Origin: a bacterium
GTDB taxonomy: Bacteria > Fidelibacterota > Fidelibacteria > Fidelibacterales > Fidelibacteraceae
NCBI GenBank assembly: GCA_963676395.1
Contig: OY781066.1
Span: forward strand, 1,728,001 to 1,792,000
Length of the DNA: 64,000 nucleotides
Direction of reading: 5' to 3'
This document shows, in pieces, positions 31,474 through 39,726 of the stretch; the stretch's first letter is position 1; each line of letters starts with the position of its first letter. The position numbers and the translations under genes were made by a program. The notes below the pieces were generated by a model. It ran no database searches, was not told the origin of the DNA, and saw nothing but the letters and a program-made list of their open reading frames with translations.

Positions 31474-33777
31474 ATGATGAAAAAGTTATTTGTTATTTTG
31501 TTATTAATTGGTCTGACACCACTTTTTGCGAACAGTTCGTTGGAATTCGATGGCATTGATGATTATGTCCAATTATCGTCCATATTGAACATAGGCAGCA
31601 GTAGCTCTACGATCGAAGCCTGGGTAAAGATCCCCACGGTGGGAACAGGTAATTTGATTTCGGATGAAAGAGTGGGGGTCATTATCGGGAATTGGGGTGT
31701 CGATGCAAATAACGTTGCATTGGAAGTCTATTCGGCAGGACAGTTACGATACTTCTGGAATAACGGTGAATTCGATCTGAAAGGATCAAAAGATCTCCGT
31801 GATGGAAGCTGGCATCATGTTGCTGCGGTAAGAGATAAAGTTAATGACTTGATTGTTATGTACGTTGACGGCGTTTTGGAATTTGATAATTCAAGTGCCG
31901 GAGCCGATTTCAACATTGTCCAAACCCATCGTATCGGTAGGGATAATCGAGGTGGAACACCGATCTCTTTTCATGGAGAGATCGATGAAGTGCGAGTATG
32001 GAATACGGCACGTACTCAAGCGGAGATCCGGGAATATATGTGTGAAGACGTCACCGGTGCCACCGGTTTGGTCGCATATTATCAAATGAGTGATGGCACA
32101 GGAACCTCCTTAACGGACAATAGCGGTAATAGCATTACAGGAACGCTGACTAACATGGACAACAGCGATTGGGTCAACGATAACCAGATCCCAAACGGCG
32201 ATGGAAGCACAATGCCCTACCAGATCAACGGATTGAACCAACTTTATTGGTTGTCTCAGAATTCCGCTTATTGGAGCGCGGACTTTGACCAGATCACCGA
32301 TATTACCGCCACGGCAACCGAGAGCTGGGACGGGGGCGCAGGATTTACTCCGATCGGAAACAACAGTACCAGATTTACCGGAACGTATGATGGGAATAAT
32401 TATGTGATCAATGACTTAAATATTGATAGAAATACCCAGATCGGTGTTGGTTTGTTCGGATATGCTTATAGCGGTGCTGCCATATCAAACGTGCATGTAT
32501 TAAATATGATTATGAGTGGTGATTTTGGGATCGGGGGTGTTGTGGGTGCTTTAAATTCATCAAGTATTAGTCAATGTTCATCAACCGGTACGATCTCTTG
32601 CAATCGCTATGCCGGCGGATTAGTCGGTAACTTGAACAGTGGAACGGTCAGCGAATGTTTCTCATCGGCATCAGTTAGTTACAGACCCGGGGGTAGCGGT
32701 GAAGGTCTCGGGGGACTGGCAGGCTATTCCGCTGGAACGATCCGTGATTGCTATGCAACCGGTGATATCAGTGGTGATTATAATGTTGGGGGGCTCACGG
32801 GAGCCGGTTTTTCGGGATCATCAACCATAAATTGTTATTCCACAGGCAGTGTCAGCGGAAGTTCACTTACTGGAGGCTTTATGGGATATGCAGACCCCGG
32901 AAATGAAGATCCGTTCGACCCTTGGATGAATGAGCCGGCAGCTGTAATCACAGCTTGTTTCTGGGATACGGAAGCATCGGGTAATGCCACCAGCGATGCC
33001 GGAGCCGGTAAAACAACGGCCGAAATGAAAACACTATCCACTTACACTGATTCCAGTTGGGACTTTATTGATGAAACTGTGAATGGCACCGATAATTATT
33101 GGGGTATCAATAACGAACAACATGACGGTTATCCTTTCCTAGCTTGGGAAGATTATACTCATAACTACAGCGATACGCCTCTGCCTGTCACCTTGGCATC
33201 TTTTAAAGCTACAGATGTTAAAGGCAAGGTCAAACTGACCTGGACCACTGAAAGTGAAACGCAAAATCTGGGTTATGTGCTGGAACGAAAAGTCAATAAT
33301 TCGGATTGGTGTGAAATCGCAAGCTATGTGAGTGACGCTGCATTGCAAGGGCGTGGAACGACCAGCGAAACGCATGATTATATCTATACAGACCGTGATG
33401 TGATTGCCGGTCAAACATATGGATATCGCTTAAGCGATGTCAGTGAAAGTAATGTGATCACCGAATTGGGCGTTGTTGAAGTCACGGTTGATGCTTCAGA
33501 CGATCTGACACCGGCAAACTTCGGATTGACCAACGCTTATCCTAATCCCTTCAACCCGGTTTTGACCATTCAGTATAACCTGACAGAAAGTGCTCAGACA
33601 ACGATCAAGATCCTGAACCTGGTGGGCCAGACGGTCGCCGTGCTGGATAATGGCTTCCGAGCCGCCGGTTTTCATGAGCTACAGTGGCAAGCGGATCATG
33701 CAGCATCGGGGATTTATTTTATCGAGATCATTTCTGGTAAGAAAAAAGATTTTAACAAGATATTATTAGCAAAGTAA
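31474..33777 (+). CDS. Secreted LamG + GLUG-repeat protein with T9SS-like CTD
   Basis: SLEFDGIDDYV, WHHVAAVRD, FHGEIDEVRVWN (LamG); GLFG/GGLVG/GGLAG repeats; LPVTLASF linker; YPNPFNP. Confidence 0.85.
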   Translation: MMKKLFVILLLIGLTPLFANSSLEFDGIDDYVQLSSILNIGSSSSTIEAWVKIPTVGTGNLISDERVGVIIGNWGVDANNVALEVYSAGQLRYFWNNGEFDLKGSKDLRDGSWHHVAAVRDKVNDLIVMYVDGVLEFDNSSAGADFNIVQTHRIGRDNRGGTPISFHGEIDEVRVWNTARTQAEIREYMCEDVTGATGLVAYYQMSDGTGTSLTDNSGNSITGTLTNMDNSDWVNDNQIPNGDGSTMPYQINGLNQLYWLSQNSAYWSADFDQITDITATATESWDGGAGFTPIGNNSTRFTGTYDGNNYVINDLNIDRNTQIGVGLFGYAYSGAAISNVHVLNMIMSGDFGIGGVVGALNSSSISQCSSTGTISCNRYAGGLVGNLNSGTVSECFSSASVSYRPGGSGEGLGGLAGYSAGTIRDCYATGDISGDYNVGGLTGAGFSGSSTINCYSTGSVSGSSLTGGFMGYADPGNEDPFDPWMNEPAAVITACFWDTEASGNATSDAGAGKTTAEMKTLSTYTDSSWDFIDETVNGTDNYWGINNEQHDGYPFLAWEDYTHNYSDTPLPVTLASFKATDVKGKVKLTWTTESETQNLGYVLERKVNNSDWCEIASYVSDAALQGRGTTSETHDYIYTDRDVIAGQTYGYRLSDVSESNVITELGVVEVTVDASDDLTPANFGLTNAYPNPFNPVLTIQYNLTESAQTTIKILNLVGQTVAVLDNGFRAAGFHELQWQADHAASGIYFIEIISGKKKDFNKILLAK

Positions 33778-33988
33778 AATGAATTAATAAGAAGACGAAT
33801 AGATAAAATAAATAATTATTAATTGACAATTTTATATTTATTTTTATCTTTTGGTACATTATATTGACTTATGTTTAATAATTAATGATAACACAATAAA
33901 TTACTATTTGAGCTTATTTAAATAATGTGAGTAGCTATGCAAGTTGAGTTGATTTGTAAGTTATTGATTTATAGGAAATTATAAAGCT

Positions 33989-34213
33989 ATGGAAAAAGAT
34001 CCAAAAAACGTCAAGAAAGAAACGACGGTTCCGGTTGAAGGTTCACTTGGGCTATTGGCATTGGGTGCTGTAGGGATTCGTGCATGGAAAGAAAGAAGAA
34101 AAGAAGTCGGATATATTAATCTTAATACCAATTTCATTAAGAAAAAACCGGAGGGGTTGAAGGCCGAGGCAAACAAGAAAACTCAGGTCCAAGGAAAAGA
34201 GGACAAAAAATGA
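33989..34213 (+). CDS. 74-aa micro-protein containing a PEP-CTERM-like motif
   Basis: VPVEGSLGLLALGAVGIRAWKERRK; stop overlaps the next ATG (ATGA). Confidence 0.7.
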   Translation: MEKDPKNVKKETTVPVEGSLGLLALGAVGIRAWKERRKEVGYINLNTNFIKKKPEGLKAEANKKTQVQGKEDKK

Positions 34214-36225
34214 GTAAACGCAAAGCGAATAAAGTCCTCTTGATTGGTTGGGACGCCGCCGACTGGAAAGTGATCAACAAACTCATTGATGAAGGCAAAA
34301 TGCCCACGATGAGCAAATTCGTGAATGAAGGTGTGATGGGAAATCTTGCAACATTAGATCCTCCTCTATCACCCATGCTTTGGACCAGTATAGCCACCGG
34401 TAAACACGCCGATGAACACGGCATTATGGGCTTTATACAGCCCAACAAGAATGGTGACGGCGTTACGCCCGTACTGTCTACCTCCCGAAAAGTAAAAGCC
34501 TTGTGGAATATCCTCATGCAGGAAGGTATGAAGTCCAATGTTGTTAGCTGGTGGCCCTCGCATCCCGCTGAACCCATTGATGGAATATATGTTTCAAACT
34601 TTTATCATAAACTCAGCAGTCGCGTCAATTTTCAAAAGCCTATGTCGGACTCAACGGTTCACCCAAAGGAATTACACAAAATCCTTGAAGATTTACGCGT
34701 TTTCCCATGGGAATTGACAAGCGAGCATTTACTCCCCTTTGTGCCGAATGCGGCCAAGATCAACCAAGAAAAAGATTACCGTCTGAATTCGATCGCTAAA
34801 ATTCTTGCCGAGACGGCGACTATTCATTCTGCGGCCACCTATGTAATGGAAAACAGTGAATGGGACCTCATGGCCGTTTACTACGATGGCATTGATCACT
34901 TCGGTCACGGTTTTATGAATTATTATCCGCCAAAGATGGAAAAAGTCGAACAAAAAGATTTTGAACTCTACAAAGGTGTGGTTGAAGCCGGTTACCGTTT
35001 TCATGATATGATGCTGGAGCGTTTGCTTGAATTGGCGGGTGAAAACACTACGGTTATTATTTGCTCCGACCATGGATTTCATTCGGATCACTTGCGCCCA
35101 AAAAGCTTATCAAAAGCTCCTGCCGCTCCTGCTGCGCAACATCGACCGTTTGGAATTTTTGCCGCGAAAGGCCTTCATATTAAAAAAGATGAGATCGTTT
35201 ACGGTTCTACAATATTGGATATTACTCCGACTATTCTGGATCTATTTGGATTGCCTATCGGTGAAGACATGGTGGGAAAACCCATTTTGCAGATGTACGA
35301 AAATCCTGAAGCGCCTGATTATATCCCATCCTGGGAAAACGTTCCCGGTGAATGTGGCATGCATGCCGAAGAACAGCGAAGCGATCCCTGGGCGGACAAA
35401 GAAGCCATGGAGCAGCTGATCGCACTGGGATATATTGAAGCACCGGGTGAAGATGTAAAAGAATATGTCGATAAAACGGCACGTGAATCCAAATTCTATC
35501 TTGCTCGTACATATCTTGACTCTAATCGCCCTCAGAAGGCGTTGGATATTCTCGAAACTATTTATAAAGAAGCACCTGATCAAGCTCGTTATGGTCAGTA
35601 TCTGATCAAATGTTATCTTGAATTGAATCGTCCTGACGATGGGATGAGGGTTCTTGAAAAATTAAGAAAGGCTTTTCCAAAAAGTGTAACACAAGCCAAT
35701 TTGTTGGAAGCACGCTTATGGCTGAAAAAAGGCGACATTGATCTTGCACAAGATTTTCTTGAAAAAGCAAAGAATATGTCAGAGGATAATTTTACGGCCA
35801 CGCTAGAACTGGGAAACGTTTACTTAATGAAAAAGATGTATACCAAAGCCGAAACATGCTATTTGGAATGTATTAAAATCAATCCCAGTTCACCTATGAG
35901 CCATTTTGGTTTAGGCAGAACTTATCTTCAACTGGAAAAGAACATGGATGCGGCTGAGCAATTGATAACTGCCGTCTCCTTGAAATATTTTTTCCCGGTA
36001 GCGCATTACTTTCTTGGTGATGCCTTGTTGAGGTTGAACTATCGCGAGAGAGCGCTGGAGGCCTATCAGATCGCTATTCAACAGGCACCGGGGATGGAAA
36101 AAGCACATAAGCGATTGATCAAGCTTTATAAGGAGATTTTTGACATGCCGGATAAGGCTAAGGAGCATGAAGATTTCATTAAAGAAAAGATTGAACCGAT
36201 CAAAAAGAAGAAAGAGAAAGCATGA
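34210..36225 (+). CDS. Alkaline-phosphatase-superfamily (nucleotide pyrophosphatase/phosphodiesterase-like) protein with C-terminal TPRs
   Basis: LLIGWDAADW, PPLSPMLWTSIATG, GIDHFGH, SDHGF metal-site motifs; EQLIALGYIE; TPR helices; no signal peptide. Confidence 0.88.
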   Translation: MSKRKANKVLLIGWDAADWKVINKLIDEGKMPTMSKFVNEGVMGNLATLDPPLSPMLWTSIATGKHADEHGIMGFIQPNKNGDGVTPVLSTSRKVKALWNILMQEGMKSNVVSWWPSHPAEPIDGIYVSNFYHKLSSRVNFQKPMSDSTVHPKELHKILEDLRVFPWELTSEHLLPFVPNAAKINQEKDYRLNSIAKILAETATIHSAATYVMENSEWDLMAVYYDGIDHFGHGFMNYYPPKMEKVEQKDFELYKGVVEAGYRFHDMMLERLLELAGENTTVIICSDHGFHSDHLRPKSLSKAPAAPAAQHRPFGIFAAKGLHIKKDEIVYGSTILDITPTILDLFGLPIGEDMVGKPILQMYENPEAPDYIPSWENVPGECGMHAEEQRSDPWADKEAMEQLIALGYIEAPGEDVKEYVDKTARESKFYLARTYLDSNRPQKALDILETIYKEAPDQARYGQYLIKCYLELNRPDDGMRVLEKLRKAFPKSVTQANLLEARLWLKKGDIDLAQDFLEKAKNMSEDNFTATLELGNVYLMKKMYTKAETCYLECIKINPSSPMSHFGLGRTYLQLEKNMDAAEQLITAVSLKYFFPVAHYFLGDALLRLNYRERALEAYQIAIQQAPGMEKAHKRLIKLYKEIFDMPDKAKEHEDFIKEKIEPIKKKKEKA

Positions 36226-36788
36226 TCACGATCGTATCCGGATTACCCAGAAGCGGAACCTCACTCATGATGCAAATGCTTGAAAAAGGCGGTATGCCGA
36301 TTTTGACGGACGGTGTTCGTAAACCTGACGATAATAATCAAAACGGCTATTATGAATATGAAAAAGTAAAAGGCCTGATGAAGGATAACAGTTGGCTGGA
36401 TGAGGCTGAAGGTAAGGTGGTTAAAGTAATATCCGGATTACTGTCGTTTTTATCTGACAATCATGAATATAAGATAATCTTAATGCGACGGGATATTGAA
36501 GAAGTATTAAGCTCTCAGGCTAAAATGCTGGAACGGCTGGGCACCTCTCAAAAAGTCGACCCCGGGATCCTAAAGATGACCTTTGAAAAACAATTTGAGA
36601 TGGTCAGGACAATGATGCTGAAGAAAGAGAATATGCAGTTTGTTGAAATTTCGTATCGTGATCTTGTGTTGGCACCCGAAAATGAGATTAAAAAGATCAA
36701 CGGATTTTTTGGAAATATTTTTAATCAAGAAATAATGATCACGGCGATTGATAAAACACTTTATAGAGAAAAGAAATTGGATCTGTAA
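36222..36788 (+). CDS. PAPS-dependent sulfotransferase family protein
   Basis: GLPRSGTSLM 5'-PSB loop; RRDIEEVLSS 3'-PB motif; ATGA overlap with the upstream gene. Confidence 0.88.
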   Translation: MITIVSGLPRSGTSLMMQMLEKGGMPILTDGVRKPDDNNQNGYYEYEKVKGLMKDNSWLDEAEGKVVKVISGLLSFLSDNHEYKIILMRRDIEEVLSSQAKMLERLGTSQKVDPGILKMTFEKQFEMVRTMMLKKENMQFVEISYRDLVLAPENEIKKINGFFGNIFNQEIMITAIDKTLYREKKLDL

Positions 36789-36809
36789 AGCAAAAAATGG
36801 AGATAGAAA

Positions 36810-38003
36810 ATGAAAAAGAAAACATCACGTACCGTAGAGAAACTGCAATTAAATAAGATTGCGGGTTATTCCTTGCTTACCGGAGCAACTATGTTGCTGG
36901 CACCGATAAGCGCTAAAGCGGATATTGTTCATGTGGATCCCGAGGATATTATTGTAGACAAATCAAACAACTATGACATTGATATTGATAATAATGGGAT
37001 CAATGATTTTAAAATTCGACAAGGAGATATAAATTTGCCATTTTCATCATACCAGTCAGATCTTACAGTAAGTGCTTATGAAGGAAATTATATTTCTACA
37101 TCAAATGGATGGATTGCAAAACAATCGAGCAGTATTTCAGTTAACAGCGCGAATATTTGGAAGAACGCCGCTCGCTTTTTAAGTGGTACTAGATATTATA
37201 GTAGTTCTTGGATGACATTAAATGGGAATTGGGAAAGCAATGCCGATGAAAAGTATTTTGGTATTAAATTTGATATTTCCGGTTCAACCCATTATGGCTG
37301 GATAAGGGCTAGCGTAGAGAACAATGTAGGAGATTTAAAGGTCACCATTCATGATTGGGCCTACGAGGATCAGCCGAATACTTCGATAAAGACAGGCGAG
37401 ACGGTTCTTCCCATTGAATTGGCGAATTTTGCTATTGACGAAGAAGACGGAGCTGTGCGGTTGAATTGGCAAACCGCCTCCGAGACTGAGAACAGCGGGT
37501 TTATTATTCAGAGGAAAACTGTTGGTTCCGATTGGGAAAACTTAGTTGATTTTTATAGCGATCCTAAACTGGCAGGACAAGGGACAACAAGTGAAACACA
37601 TGATTATTCCTGGTTGGATAATAGTGTTGAGCCTGGAATGAGCTACCAATACCGTCTGGGTGATGTCGATCATGCGAATACGATCGTTTGGCACGATGCA
37701 GTTGACATTACGGTCTCTGAAGAACTCGCGCACATGCCGGCTGAGTTCGGTTTGCAGTCAGCATTTCCCAACCCATTTAATCCCACGCTCACTATTCGAT
37801 ACGATTTGACCGAAAGTGCCAAGACTAGCGTTAAGATTTTAGATCTGGCGGGCCAGACGGTCGCCGTGCTGGATAATGGTTTCCGAGCTGCCGGTTCTCA
37901 TGAGCTGCAGTGGCGGGCGGATGATGCTGCATCAGGGATCTATTTTGTGCAGTTGCAATCCGGGGATCAACTTGATTTTCAGAAAGTACTTTTAGTTAAA
38001 TAA
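36810..38003 (+). CDS. Secreted protein with YFGIKF...THYGWIR domain and T9SS-like CTD
   Basis: Extended signal peptide ending AKA/DIV; DIDNNGINDF; KYFGIKFDISGSTHYGWIR...DWAYEDQPN; LPIELANF linker; FPNPFNP CTD. Confidence 0.8.
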   Translation: MKKKTSRTVEKLQLNKIAGYSLLTGATMLLAPISAKADIVHVDPEDIIVDKSNNYDIDIDNNGINDFKIRQGDINLPFSSYQSDLTVSAYEGNYISTSNGWIAKQSSSISVNSANIWKNAARFLSGTRYYSSSWMTLNGNWESNADEKYFGIKFDISGSTHYGWIRASVENNVGDLKVTIHDWAYEDQPNTSIKTGETVLPIELANFAIDEEDGAVRLNWQTASETENSGFIIQRKTVGSDWENLVDFYSDPKLAGQGTTSETHDYSWLDNSVEPGMSYQYRLGDVDHANTIVWHDAVDITVSEELAHMPAEFGLQSAFPNPFNPTLTIRYDLTESAKTSVKILDLAGQTVAVLDNGFRAAGSHELQWRADDAASGIYFVQLQSGDQLDFQKVLLVK

Positions 38004-38024
38004 TTAAATTTAAATGATATTGAC

Positions 38025-38047
38025 TGGCCGGCAATTGCCGGCCATTT
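38025..38047 (+). terminator. Terminator-like hairpin
   Basis: TGGCCGGCAATTGCCGGCCA followed by TTT. Confidence 0.65.
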
Positions 38048-38123
38048 ACATATTGACATTTAAAAAATAAATACTTATTATTATATGTTAGTAAAATAAA
38101 TGTAATTAAGTAAAGGAAATAAC

Positions 38124-38801
38124 ATGAGGACTATAATTTTACAATTGAAAAATGTATTTCAATTAGTTGTAATTGTATTTCTGGGCTTTCTTTTTATAGA
38201 TTGTGATTTGAATATTTTCAAACCTAATCAAAGGGAATATTTCCCGGTTTCAGTCGGCAATACTTGGACTTTTAATTCGATATATAAGTATTGGTATAAT
38301 GATCTTGGAACATCATCTAAGAATCATTATGAAGGAGTAGAAATCTGGGAAATTATAGCTAATAATGGTGATACACTAACTTTAGAAATTAGTTTTAACG
38401 GATATAGTTATTTTCTGGTTTATTATGATGATTGTGATCTTTATGGGGGTCCTTATTTAGATTCGACTCGAATAGATGTTAGGAAAGTAATTAAATTATT
38501 ACCACAAAATAGTTGTTGGAAATATAACTCAACCACTGAGTCAAATACTTCGTTTAACAAAATACCAGGCTTGATGCTTATAAAAGATTCTGGAATTCCA
38601 TATAAAATAGACAGCAATGAACTTGTAGTTCGAGACACGATTTATGATACCTCCGATGACCATTCAGGAGATATATCTGGTTATTTGTATTGGGATATCA
38701 CGTTACACCAGGGACCAATATTTGGGAAGCGACTCGAATCAACATGGTATTGGGGTAATAGCCAGAGTATTGAATTGTTATTTCATTCTTTGAATGAGTA
38801 A
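38124..38801 (+). CDS. Hypothetical exported, possibly lipoprotein
   Basis: Hydrophobic N-terminus with Cys; YFPVSVGNTWTF motif; AAGGA RBS. Confidence 0.65.
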   Translation: MRTIILQLKNVFQLVVIVFLGFLFIDCDLNIFKPNQREYFPVSVGNTWTFNSIYKYWYNDLGTSSKNHYEGVEIWEIIANNGDTLTLEISFNGYSYFLVYYDDCDLYGGPYLDSTRIDVRKVIKLLPQNSCWKYNSTTESNTSFNKIPGLMLIKDSGIPYKIDSNELVVRDTIYDTSDDHSGDISGYLYWDITLHQGPIFGKRLESTWYWGNSQSIELLFHSLNE

Positions 38802-38946: not shown

Positions 38947-39295
38947 GGGGGTGTAAAGGTTTCGACAGGGCGGGTAGGTCGGAATGTAAGCGTGTCGTGG
39001 TGTTCAGGATCCCACGTAAATCAATCTGAAATTCAATTTAAATGCAGATAATTTTGCATACGCTGCTTAATTAAATAGTAGCCGTCCATCCAGGCTTTGT
39101 TCGTGGGTTTGGAATGGGCGCCATTTTACGAACTCGCATTTGCCAGTGATTGCGGGGTAAATGTTAAAAACTGCGATCTGGTTCTTTTTGTATTTGATCA
39201 TTGATGCATAAAGAATAAGAAATCTCGATGATCTACGCACGTAGAAAGCATCTTGGTCTCCGTTTTGGACCCGGGTTCGATTCCCGGCACCTCCA
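38947..39295 (+). ncRNA. ssrA: tmRNA; tag peptide (A)ADNFAYAA*
   Basis: 5' GGGGGTGTAAAGGTTTCGAC; 3' GGACCCGGGTTCGATTCCCGGCACCTCCA; tag frame GCA GAT AAT TTT GCA TAC GCT GCT TAA at 39044-39070. Confidence 0.95.
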
Positions 39296-39480
39296 CACTT
39301 CGCTCGAAGCGTGAAGTGTGCCCTTCGAAGTTCATCTTTAGATGAACGAAGAATGGGCTGATCAAATAAAACCATTCTTAAACACTCTTCGAGCTACGCA
39401 TGGCAGGCCACAATTTGTGATGTACATCACAATTAGTAATTCTTTCCTGAATTTGCCTGAAATATTAATTATTTTTAGAT

Positions 39481-39726
39481 ATGTATTATGTTTACATCCT
39501 GAAAAGTGAAATCAATTCAAAAGAAACATATACAGGTTATAGCAGTGATCTGAAAAAGCGATTAACCGCGCATAACAATGGTGAGTGTAGGCATACTTCA
39601 AAATATAGGCTATGGAAAGTTATTTGGTACAGTGCTTTTGAAGATAAATTAAAAGCAATTCAGTTTAAAAAATACCTGAAATCCAGTTCAGGAAAAGCAT
39701 TTACAAATAAAGGATTAATTAATTGA
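39481..39726 (+). CDS. Small GIY-YIG nuclease family protein
   Basis: MYYVYILKS...YTGYSSDLKKRLTAHNNG...HTSKYR...KYLKSSSGKAF. Confidence 0.88.
   Translation: MYYVYILKSEINSKETYTGYSSDLKKRLTAHNNGECRHTSKYRLWKVIWYSAFEDKLKAIQFKKYLKSSSGKAFTNKGLIN

Follow-up and report, generated by a model that had tools for sequence, protein, structure and literature searches.

The cassette and its layout

The window analyzed in this study is a 64,000-nucleotide (nt) stretch of contig OY781066.1 (positions 1,728,001 to 1,792,000; assembly GCA_963676395.1) from a bacterium of the family Fidelibacteraceae. It contains a cassette of four genes, which encode a micro-protein of 74 amino acids (aa), an enzyme that combines an alkaline phosphatase (AlkP) superfamily domain with tetratricopeptide repeats (TPRs), a sulfotransferase of the type that uses 3'-phosphoadenosine 5'-phosphosulfate (PAPS), and a secreted protein with a THYGW domain (Table 1). 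This cassette is a self-contained module present across many phyla, consisting of the micro-protein or a corresponding protein tail, the AlkP-TPR enzyme, the sulfotransferase (often fused to the enzyme), and the THYGW surface protein.

The gene arrangement proposed in the first-pass annotation agrees with the open reading frame (ORF) coordinates and with the sequence. The AlkP-TPR ORF (671 aa) occupies 34210-36225 on the + strand. Its junction with the micro-ORF is an ATGA overlap at 34210-34213, as read in the sequence, and the coordinates give a 4-nt overlap with the sulfotransferase gene (36222-36225) and a gap of 21 nt (36789-36809) between the sulfotransferase and THYGW genes. The domain calls made at the same time (AlkP with TPRs, sulfotransferase, and the C-terminal domain (CTD) of the type IX secretion system (T9SS)) were confirmed by Pfam and NCBIfam.

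Table 1. Features of the cassette, numbered from the first nucleotide of the window.
Feature	Position	Strand	Basis and remarks
Micro-protein, 74 aa	33989..34213	+	ORF list; invariant core residues 15-33 PVEGSLGLLALGAVGIRAW, then basic cluster; variable Lys-/Glu-rich flanks
AlkP-superfamily catalytic domain (NPP/phosphodiesterase-like) of the 671-aa enzyme	34210..35484	+	PF01663; no signal peptide
TPR region of the 671-aa enzyme (~residues 420-660)	35470..36225	+	Several TPR Pfam families above cut-off
PAPS-type sulfotransferase, minimal, 188 aa	36222..36788	+	PF13469, PF00685
THYGW-domain secreted protein, 397 aa	36810..38003	+	N-terminal signal-like segment, THYGW domain ~36-212, linker/Ig-like region, T9SS type A CTD

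Conservation of the micro-protein

The micro-ORF contains the core VPVEGSLGLLALGAVGIRAWKERRK and reads as a Pro motif followed by a hydrophobic stretch and a basic cluster (PVEGSLGLLALGAVGIRAWKERRK). The N-terminus of the micro-protein is hydrophilic, neither a signal peptide nor a cargo domain is present, and about 36 residues follow the basic cluster. A word-based search returned 32 small homologues of 46-80 aa besides the window copy, one database homologue being labelled Candidatus Cloacimonetes. In a 33-sequence alignment, the core E-G-S-L-G-x-L-A-L-G-A-V-G-I-x-x-W was invariant and both flanks were variable. An exhaustive profile search of 1.84 billion representatives revealed 809 representative clusters with E<=0.001, 125 of them with E<=1e-10; the members are 45-100 aa long in 149 of the 150 best clusters and 156 aa long in the remaining one.

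Compared with the window copy, the 13 core codons showed up to 12 synonymous and 0 non-synonymous differences (loci L040 and L016), and copies from the same genus differ from it in these codons by 6 synonymous changes and 1 non-synonymous change. Synonymous changes in the core thus far exceed non-synonymous ones, which indicates that the constraint acts on the protein. The micro-ORF is a genuine gene, with strong selection at the level of the protein. A chance ORF was considered and rejected on account of the conservation in 809 clusters and the codon pattern.

The micro-protein scores 14.5 bits against the PEP-CTERM family PF07589 (cut-off 20.7) and 15.5 bits against the PFE-CTERM family NF050011 (cut-off 24), below the cut-off in both cases, and TIGR02595 was not reported for it at E<=0.1. 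Pfam and NCBIfam hold no name for the micro-protein or the THYGW domain, and the protein atlas holds only unnamed 'hypothetical protein' clusters (scores 0.79-0.87). A second motif, G-Y-x-N-x-N-x-N-[FIV], comes after the basic cluster, at residues 41-49 of the micro-protein (window 34109-34135), in the Cloacimonadota copies and a subset of others.

Linkage of the micro-gene with the AlkP-TPR enzyme

The association was investigated in 80 loci from reference genomes of other phyla, fetched with the enzyme profile, and in 80 metagenome loci fetched with the micro profile, of which 70 have at least 300 nt of downstream sequence. Within a sample of 401 genomes of the phylum, the micro-gene and the AlkP-TPR gene are carried by the same five genomes. 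The enzyme gene lies downstream on the same strand in 66 of the 70 metagenome loci, at a median distance of 46 nt. These counts support the tie between the micro-ORF and the AlkP-TPR and sulfotransferase genes that was postulated from the window.

A stand-alone strong micro match occurs in 49 of the 80 AlkP loci; 47 lie within 300 nt upstream of the enzyme, one is an in-frame micro-AlkP fusion (L016, Dehalococcoidia), and one is 1656 nt away. The sulfotransferase follows the enzyme in 74 of the 80 loci, either fused or adjacent, and a THYGW-domain ORF was found in 57. The order micro-gene, AlkP-TPR, sulfotransferase, with adjoining THYGW/T9SS paralogues, is kept in all four further Cloacimonadota loci. 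Clustering of the ORFs of at least 90 aa from the 80 loci gave two recurrent families, the enzyme (79 loci) and the THYGW protein (55 loci), the next family being found in 6 loci. Membership in a polysaccharide locus was rejected because no recurrent glycosyltransferase or export genes were found.

Further fusions of the micro-protein to the enzyme occur. In five of the 120 enzyme homologues listed (743-772 aa), the micro motif stands at the N-terminus, ~50-75 residues before the catalytic domain, and a sixth listed homologue starts inside the motif.

The enzyme and its sulfotransferase

The AlkP domain matches PF01663 (Phosphodiest) with 102.4 bits against a cut-off of 23 (E 5e-29), and its structural model has a pLDDT of 89.7. 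The top Foldseek match was the nucleotide pyrophosphatase/phosphodiesterase (NPP) of Xac (1e-10, probability 1.00); sulfatases and phosphonate monoester hydrolases were also matched. The structural likeness is at the superfamily level only, with a TM score of about 0.45-0.5 and 15% identity, and a sequence search of the PDB with the AlkP domain gave no relative at E<=0.01. D15, S54, D229, H233, D287 and H288 do not vary in either of two alignments, of 66 and 38 enzyme sequences; we take them to be the metal ligands and the Ser/Thr nucleophile, based on superfamily motifs rather than on a residue-level superposition. The TPR region is matched above cut-off by many Pfam TPR families and in NCBIfam by generic sub-threshold TPR models only.

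The enzyme family is large. At least 7972 proteins belong to it at E<=1e-10 (among 8000 candidates examined), with about 50% identity across phyla, and the source names include Neomarinimicrobiota, Delongbacteria, Bacteroidota, Proteobacteria, Planctomycetota and Chloroflexi. This family is named no further than 'alkaline phosphatase family protein'.

Many other organisms have the sulfotransferase joined to the C-terminal end of AlkP-TPR. Among the 120 homologues listed, 54 carry its domain in the same polypeptide, of 845-950 aa. The window copy scores 47 bits against Sulfotransfer_3 (PF13469, cut-off 27) and 37.3 bits against Sulfotransfer_1 (PF00685, cut-off 22), and the PRSGTS loop, R90 and S98 are invariant in 34 sulfotransferase sequences. 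The profile of this family matches cytosolic phenol/tyrosine-ester sulfotransferases (best 4.5e-8) over the 3'-phosphate-binding half, and its PRSGTS P-loop matches protein-tyrosine sulfotransferases (TPST) at about 1e-3. A PDB search with the single sulfotransferase sequence gave weak matches only.

Predicted binding of the micro-protein to the enzyme

Complex prediction was performed with our own alignments (66 rows for the enzyme and 115 for the micro-protein). The interface score ipSAE was 0.82, 0.82 and 0.85 for the enzyme with the micro-protein, versus 0.00 for the best of three controls; the pLDDT of the partner was 61-65, and the runs share at least 72% of their contacts. The predicted interface is formed by helices 191-215 and 257-276 of the AlkP domain, outside the TPR region and the presumed catalytic residues. 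The first-pass annotation had proposed that the micro-protein is read by the TPRs; in the prediction, the helix sits on the AlkP catalytic domain instead.

On the micro-protein, the predicted contacts are residues 15, 17-21, 23-28, 30-31 and 34, plus 44, 46 and 48-49. On the enzyme, they are 139-140, 161-176, 192, 199, 203, 206-211, 214, 264, 267-268 and 270-271, so the predicted binding surface spans 139-140, 161-176, 192-214 and 264-271 of the AlkP domain. Two of the enzyme residues predicted to make contact (P176 and T210) are invariant in the 66 enzymes, and E168, T170, H173, A208, E214, M267, M268 and R271 are at least 90% conserved. Residues 44, 46, 48 and 49, which are among the predicted contacts, belong to the second motif of the micro-protein.

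The THYGW protein and its tails

The THYGW protein of the window carries a T9SS CTD at residues 319-394 of 397 (TIGR04183, 36.5 bits against a cut-off of 23; PF18962, 41.3 against 27). Its gene is the only true THYGW-domain match in the host genome. The THYGW domain is modelled as an all-beta sandwich (pLDDT 92.6), for which Foldseek found nothing at E<=0.001. Comparison with HmuY-like proteins (VIA) gave Z values of 6.2-7.4 (8b6a 7.4, 4ei0 7.3, 3h8t 6.8), a range typical of models without a clear match.

In other phyla, the THYGW protein has a different C-terminus. Of the 31 loci without a strong micro-ORF, 16 have directly upstream of the enzyme a gene for a protein of 220-320 aa with a signal-like N-terminus, a THYGW domain and a PEP-CTERM/IPTL-type tail, such as ...PEPSSVALMGLGLLALGGRGLREWRRRKKK (L065) and ...PEPGTLSLTLLGLGAGGVRAWRKRK (L056). 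These tailed-THYGW loci belong to Proteobacteria, Verrucomicrobiota, Planctomycetota, Bryobacterales, Armatimonadota, Nitrospirae and Desulfobacteraceae; in the last two the tail is of the VPTLxxWG type. TIGR02595 (PEP_CTERM) was above cut-off in 6 of 12 tailed THYGW proteins tested and IPTL_CTERM in one of two, whereas the TIGR04183 CTD was above cut-off in all nine THYGW proteins tested from loci of the split type. In addition, the exact micro core (...QGSLGLLALGAVGLQAWR...) ends six THYGW proteins from soil metagenomes, four from the metagenome loci that lack the enzyme gene downstream and two from further loci. These proteins directly link the tail with the stand-alone form. Judged by these sequences, the tail is a separate gene in T9SS phyla, where the THYGW protein carries a T9SS CTD, and the C-terminus of the THYGW protein elsewhere. 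Both the mention of a YFGIKF/THYGW/WAYE domain on proteins with a similar tail and the suggestion that the tail had been kept as a separate gene were therefore well founded.

The specificity of the tail was evaluated in five genomes that have an exosortase and the fused arrangement. There, the micro profile matched 14 places at E<=0.05, as against 143 PEP-CTERM matches; of the 12 places examined, eight are in enzyme loci, two in other THYGW proteins and two in non-THYGW proteins. Seven of the eight true THYGW-domain matches in five genomes are in AlkP loci. An exosortase was found above cut-off in 5/5 genomes of the fused (tailed-THYGW) type versus 1/5 of the split type; these samples are small and related, and the difference is a pattern rather than a test.

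Several loci showed variations of the THYGW genes. Locus L007, which is from the same genus, has a second THYGW paralogue ahead of its micro-gene. The Chitinophagales locus L082 (1725-4700 and 7678-8265) has five short THYGW ORFs of 194-201 aa, which end right after the domain with no CTD or tail. In the Planctomycetota locus L066 (4051-4972), the upstream THYGW gene seems to be split over two overlapping frames, which could be a frameshift or an assembly error; its second part has an extra Asp-/Gly-rich repeat segment ahead of the PEP-type tail.

Exosortase and sulfate supply in the host genome

The host genome is a single contig of 2,335,625 bp and 95.29% complete. At this completeness, no match to the exosortase PF09721 was found in it, and there was no PEP-CTERM match at E<=1. 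A genome scan for PFE-CTERM gave the micro-ORF as the sole match, a weak one (16.1 bits). The micro-protein is not an exosortase signal in this genome, because exosortase and PEP-CTERM matches are both absent; the first-pass annotation had argued in the same direction.

The suggested search for cysC and cysDN located the genes for PAPS synthesis. A cluster of cysD, cysN/C and cysC is present at 914435-917799 of the contig, outside the window, with the cysN/C fusion forming a 638-aa frame. This cluster indicates that the host can make PAPS. No match to the ATP sulfurylase PF01747 was found in the host genome, which has CysD and CysN/C instead, and no CysH-type PAPS reductase was seen there, the only PAPS_reduct-family match being cysD. 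Adenosine 5'-phosphosulfate (APS) kinase was considered as a marker of the module and rejected, since it is present in 298 of the 401 genomes of the phylum sample, all five cassette carriers among them.

Proposed function of the module

The genes, their conservation, their linkage and the fusions show that the cassette is one copy of a conserved three-part module. We consider it probable, at roughly 60%, that in this module the micro-protein is a subunit or recognition peptide of the AlkP domain and the enzyme uses PAPS on a target connected with the THYGW protein. The first part would be a cytoplasmic bifunctional enzyme, made up of an AlkP/NPP-like domain, TPRs and a PAPS-type sulfotransferase that is either fused or encoded by the next gene. 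The second is the THYGW beta-sandwich surface protein, secreted and often present in several tandem copies. The third is a helix of ~25 residues, P-x-E-G-S-L-G-L-L-A-L-G-x-x-G-x-x-x-W-R/K, followed by a basic cluster. This helix appears in three arrangements, namely as the PEP-CTERM-like C-terminus of the THYGW protein, as the stand-alone micro-protein of the window, and as an N-terminal fusion on the enzyme. In the host genome, the micro-protein is most likely a tightly bound small subunit or a recognition or activating peptide of the AlkP domain, and not a sorting signal or a passive anchor; in organisms with an exosortase, the helix would bring the enzyme and its THYGW client together. This reading is favored because the stand-alone form is near-invariant without an exosortase and is naturally fused to a cytoplasmic enzyme. 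Binding to the AlkP domain is predicted, and from this prediction and the gene arrangement we infer the role as a subunit or activator.

Several observations weigh against this proposal. The binding is a matter of model confidence: of 157 solved complexes, 116 attained the ipSAE mark, as did 2 of 215 mismatched pairs, and this calibration is only rough for predictions with our own alignments. Covariation in 90 distinct micro/AlkP pairs did not show enrichment at contact positions (Mann-Whitney p = 0.20), with a contact as the top pair. The proposal leaves the TPRs without an assigned ligand, and no conserved acceptor residue was identified in the sequences compared. Fifteen of the 80 AlkP loci showed no micro-ORF and no tailed THYGW protein, although the available upstream sequence is shorter than 800 nt in four of them. 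The presence of APS kinase in 298/401 genomes means that the PAPS supply is not specific to the module.

The micro-protein could instead be a single-pass membrane anchor (N-out, C-in) that tethers AlkP-TPR and the sulfotransferase to the cytoplasmic face of the inner membrane, the substrate being lipid- or membrane-linked or the cytoplasmic end of the exported THYGW protein. A hydrophobic core followed by a basic cluster would fit such an anchor, as would the homology to the membrane-spanning part of PEP-CTERM tails, and the N-terminal enzyme fusions are topologically compatible with a signal-anchor. In the family, however, the median length of the uncharged stretch across the motif is just 13 residues (range 9-20), whereas about 16-17 uncharged residues were read from the true PEP-CTERM tails of upstream THYGW sequences; the four variable positions between G26 and W33 include His or a charged residue in 121 of 167 members. 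The best 19-residue Kyte-Doolittle mean has a median of 1.33. A value of 1.6 is reached by 23 of 178 members and a 16-residue uncharged run is present in 55 of 167, so that a membrane state is possible, though not the obvious reading, and this counts against the subunit proposal. Near-invariance of ~16 residues across phyla would be unusual for a passive anchor, and in the predicted complex the helix is buried in the AlkP domain. A membrane-embedded adaptor, as first suggested, is therefore doubtful on sequence grounds, and we regard the anchor as unlikely. The position of a small gene directly upstream of modifying enzymes, with overlapping stop and start codons, is also what would be expected of a substrate, that is, a precursor or carrier peptide resembling those of ribosomally synthesized and post-translationally modified peptides (RiPPs), which AlkP and the sulfotransferase would phosphorylate, dephosphorylate or sulfate on the invariant Ser19 or, in the subfamily that has it, on Tyr42. 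The conservation of Ser19 across 115 micro sequences is at least 90%, the GY.N.N motif is kept in a subfamily, and the likeness of the sulfotransferase P-loop to protein-tyrosine sulfotransferases points the same way. But no protease or exporter is recurrent in the 80 neighbourhoods, the flanks are variable and some members end just after the basic cluster, and natural fusion to the enzyme or to the THYGW protein would be odd for a released product; the predicted contacts moreover do not include the presumed catalytic residues. We regard a substrate role as less likely still than an anchor.

The layout of Pro motif, hydrophobic stretch and basic cluster, together with the sub-threshold PEP-CTERM and PFE-CTERM matches, would also agree with a genuine exosortase-type sorting signal, or with a decaying remnant of one that has no function of its own. 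This is contradicted by the lack of an exosortase in the host genome, the lack of a signal peptide or cargo on the micro-protein, the strong purifying selection, and the occurrence as a stand-alone gene in 49/80 loci of other phyla and in 809 representative clusters; it is the least probable explanation by far. The subunit or recognition-peptide proposal can be extended to PEP-CTERM-type tails themselves. One subclass of these tails may have a second, cytoplasmic job as the recognition or activating peptide of an AlkP-TPR-sulfotransferase that modifies THYGW proteins or their anchor before export, and the peptide would persist as a separate gene or enzyme fusion where exosortase is absent and the cargo has switched to T9SS, as a "leader in trans". 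This extension is tentative, and we would currently wager against it, with slightly less conviction than in the case of the membrane anchor.

To our knowledge, the role of PEP-CTERM tails beyond exosortase cleavage has been open since their description. In the module, one subclass of them is linked with an enzyme of the cytoplasm by gene order, by three kinds of natural fusion and by a strongly scoring complex model, and the tail persists as its own gene where exosortase is absent. Should surface proteins or their anchors be what the enzyme sulfates, the module would be a widespread bacterial system for this sulfation, and communities of soil, water, sediment and digesters would share a common, overlooked modification of the cell surface. 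No description of the module was found in the searchable full-text literature, in which subscription journals are not covered. The one article there in which PEP-CTERM and sulfotransferase both appear (PMC8776678) has either word a single time.

Comparison with known systems

The micro-protein shares with PEP-CTERM/exosortase systems (TIGR02595, PF07589; PF09721) and with IPTL-CTERM (TIGR04174) a Pro motif, a Gly-/Leu-rich hydrophobic stretch and an Arg/Lys cluster. The clear relatives of its core are true tails (TIGR02595 above cut-off) on THYGW proteins in exosortase genomes. It differs from such tails in standing alone without a signal peptide or cargo, in its shorter hydrophobic run and in the residues that continue after the basic cluster; moreover, it stays below the family cut-offs, its host has no exosortase, and it is predicted to bind a cytoplasmic enzyme.

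In the RaxX/RaxST sulfated-peptide system of Xanthomonas, a small peptide gene adjoins a PAPS-dependent sulfotransferase gene. The cassette likewise has a small peptide gene beside a PAPS-type sulfotransferase. However, it has no recurrent peptidase-containing exporter, its conserved partner is the AlkP-TPR enzyme, conservation in the micro-protein is centred on a hydrophobic helix and not on an acidic Tyr site, and the module includes a secreted beta-sandwich protein. Leader-dependent RiPP enzymes can also be switched on when the leader is provided in trans or is part of the enzyme polypeptide. In the module, similarly, one short peptide is carried by the client in cis, encoded separately, or placed at the N-terminus of the enzyme, and its coupling of enzyme and client would resemble the action of leader or follower peptides. 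Unlike RiPP systems, the module involves no known family of RiPP enzymes and no RiPP recognition element, its client is a surface protein that is folded and secreted, and activation is a role we infer.

With the NPP and sulfatase branches of the AlkP superfamily, the enzyme shares the fold, and its invariant residues are those that would be expected as metal ligands and Ser/Thr nucleophile, but it is cytoplasmic, has C-terminal TPRs and often a fused sulfotransferase, and bears a helical surface predicted to hold the micro-protein. The THYGW protein of the window and those of the split-type loci (9/9) resemble T9SS type A cargo in their TIGR04183 CTD. They differ from it in that the same domain bears PEP-CTERM/IPTL-CTERM tails in other phyla beside the same enzyme, a combination for which we found no description.

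Flanking genes and origin of the cassette

Unrelated genes flank the cassette, namely Fur and peroxiredoxin genes upstream, and a tmRNA gene, a GIY-YIG ORF and an M3 peptidase gene downstream, indicating that the cassette is bounded. A promoter/terminator scan of 33700-38300 gave counts at chance level (18 versus 13.6 +/- 3.7 and 5 versus 3.6 +/- 2.1). A look-up of RNA records for 33900-38100 gave none, the single record listed being of DNA type. The 225-aa ORF at 38124-38801 has a lipoprotein-like N-terminus; it has no Pfam or NCBIfam match and no counterpart in the related Cloacimonadota loci. Upstream of the micro-gene, 31474-33777 encodes a 767-aa protein with LamG, GLUG and a T9SS CTD and without a THYGW domain. 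Its last ~200 residues are ~50% identical to THYGW/CTD proteins of related loci, and the module elsewhere does not conserve it.

The tmRNA gene (38947-39296) begins ~950 nt downstream of the cassette and is followed by the GIY-YIG ORF (39481-39726). The GC content of the 31-38 kb region is 0.39-0.48, versus 0.32-0.38 in its flanks. The window enzyme shares 71% identity with a protein that bears the label Neomarinimicrobiota but only 46-47% with those of other Cloacimonadota. The GC shift, the presence in 5/401 genomes of the phylum, the identity pattern and the tmRNA neighbour together suggest that the cassette (here 31474-38003) was acquired horizontally beside ssrA.

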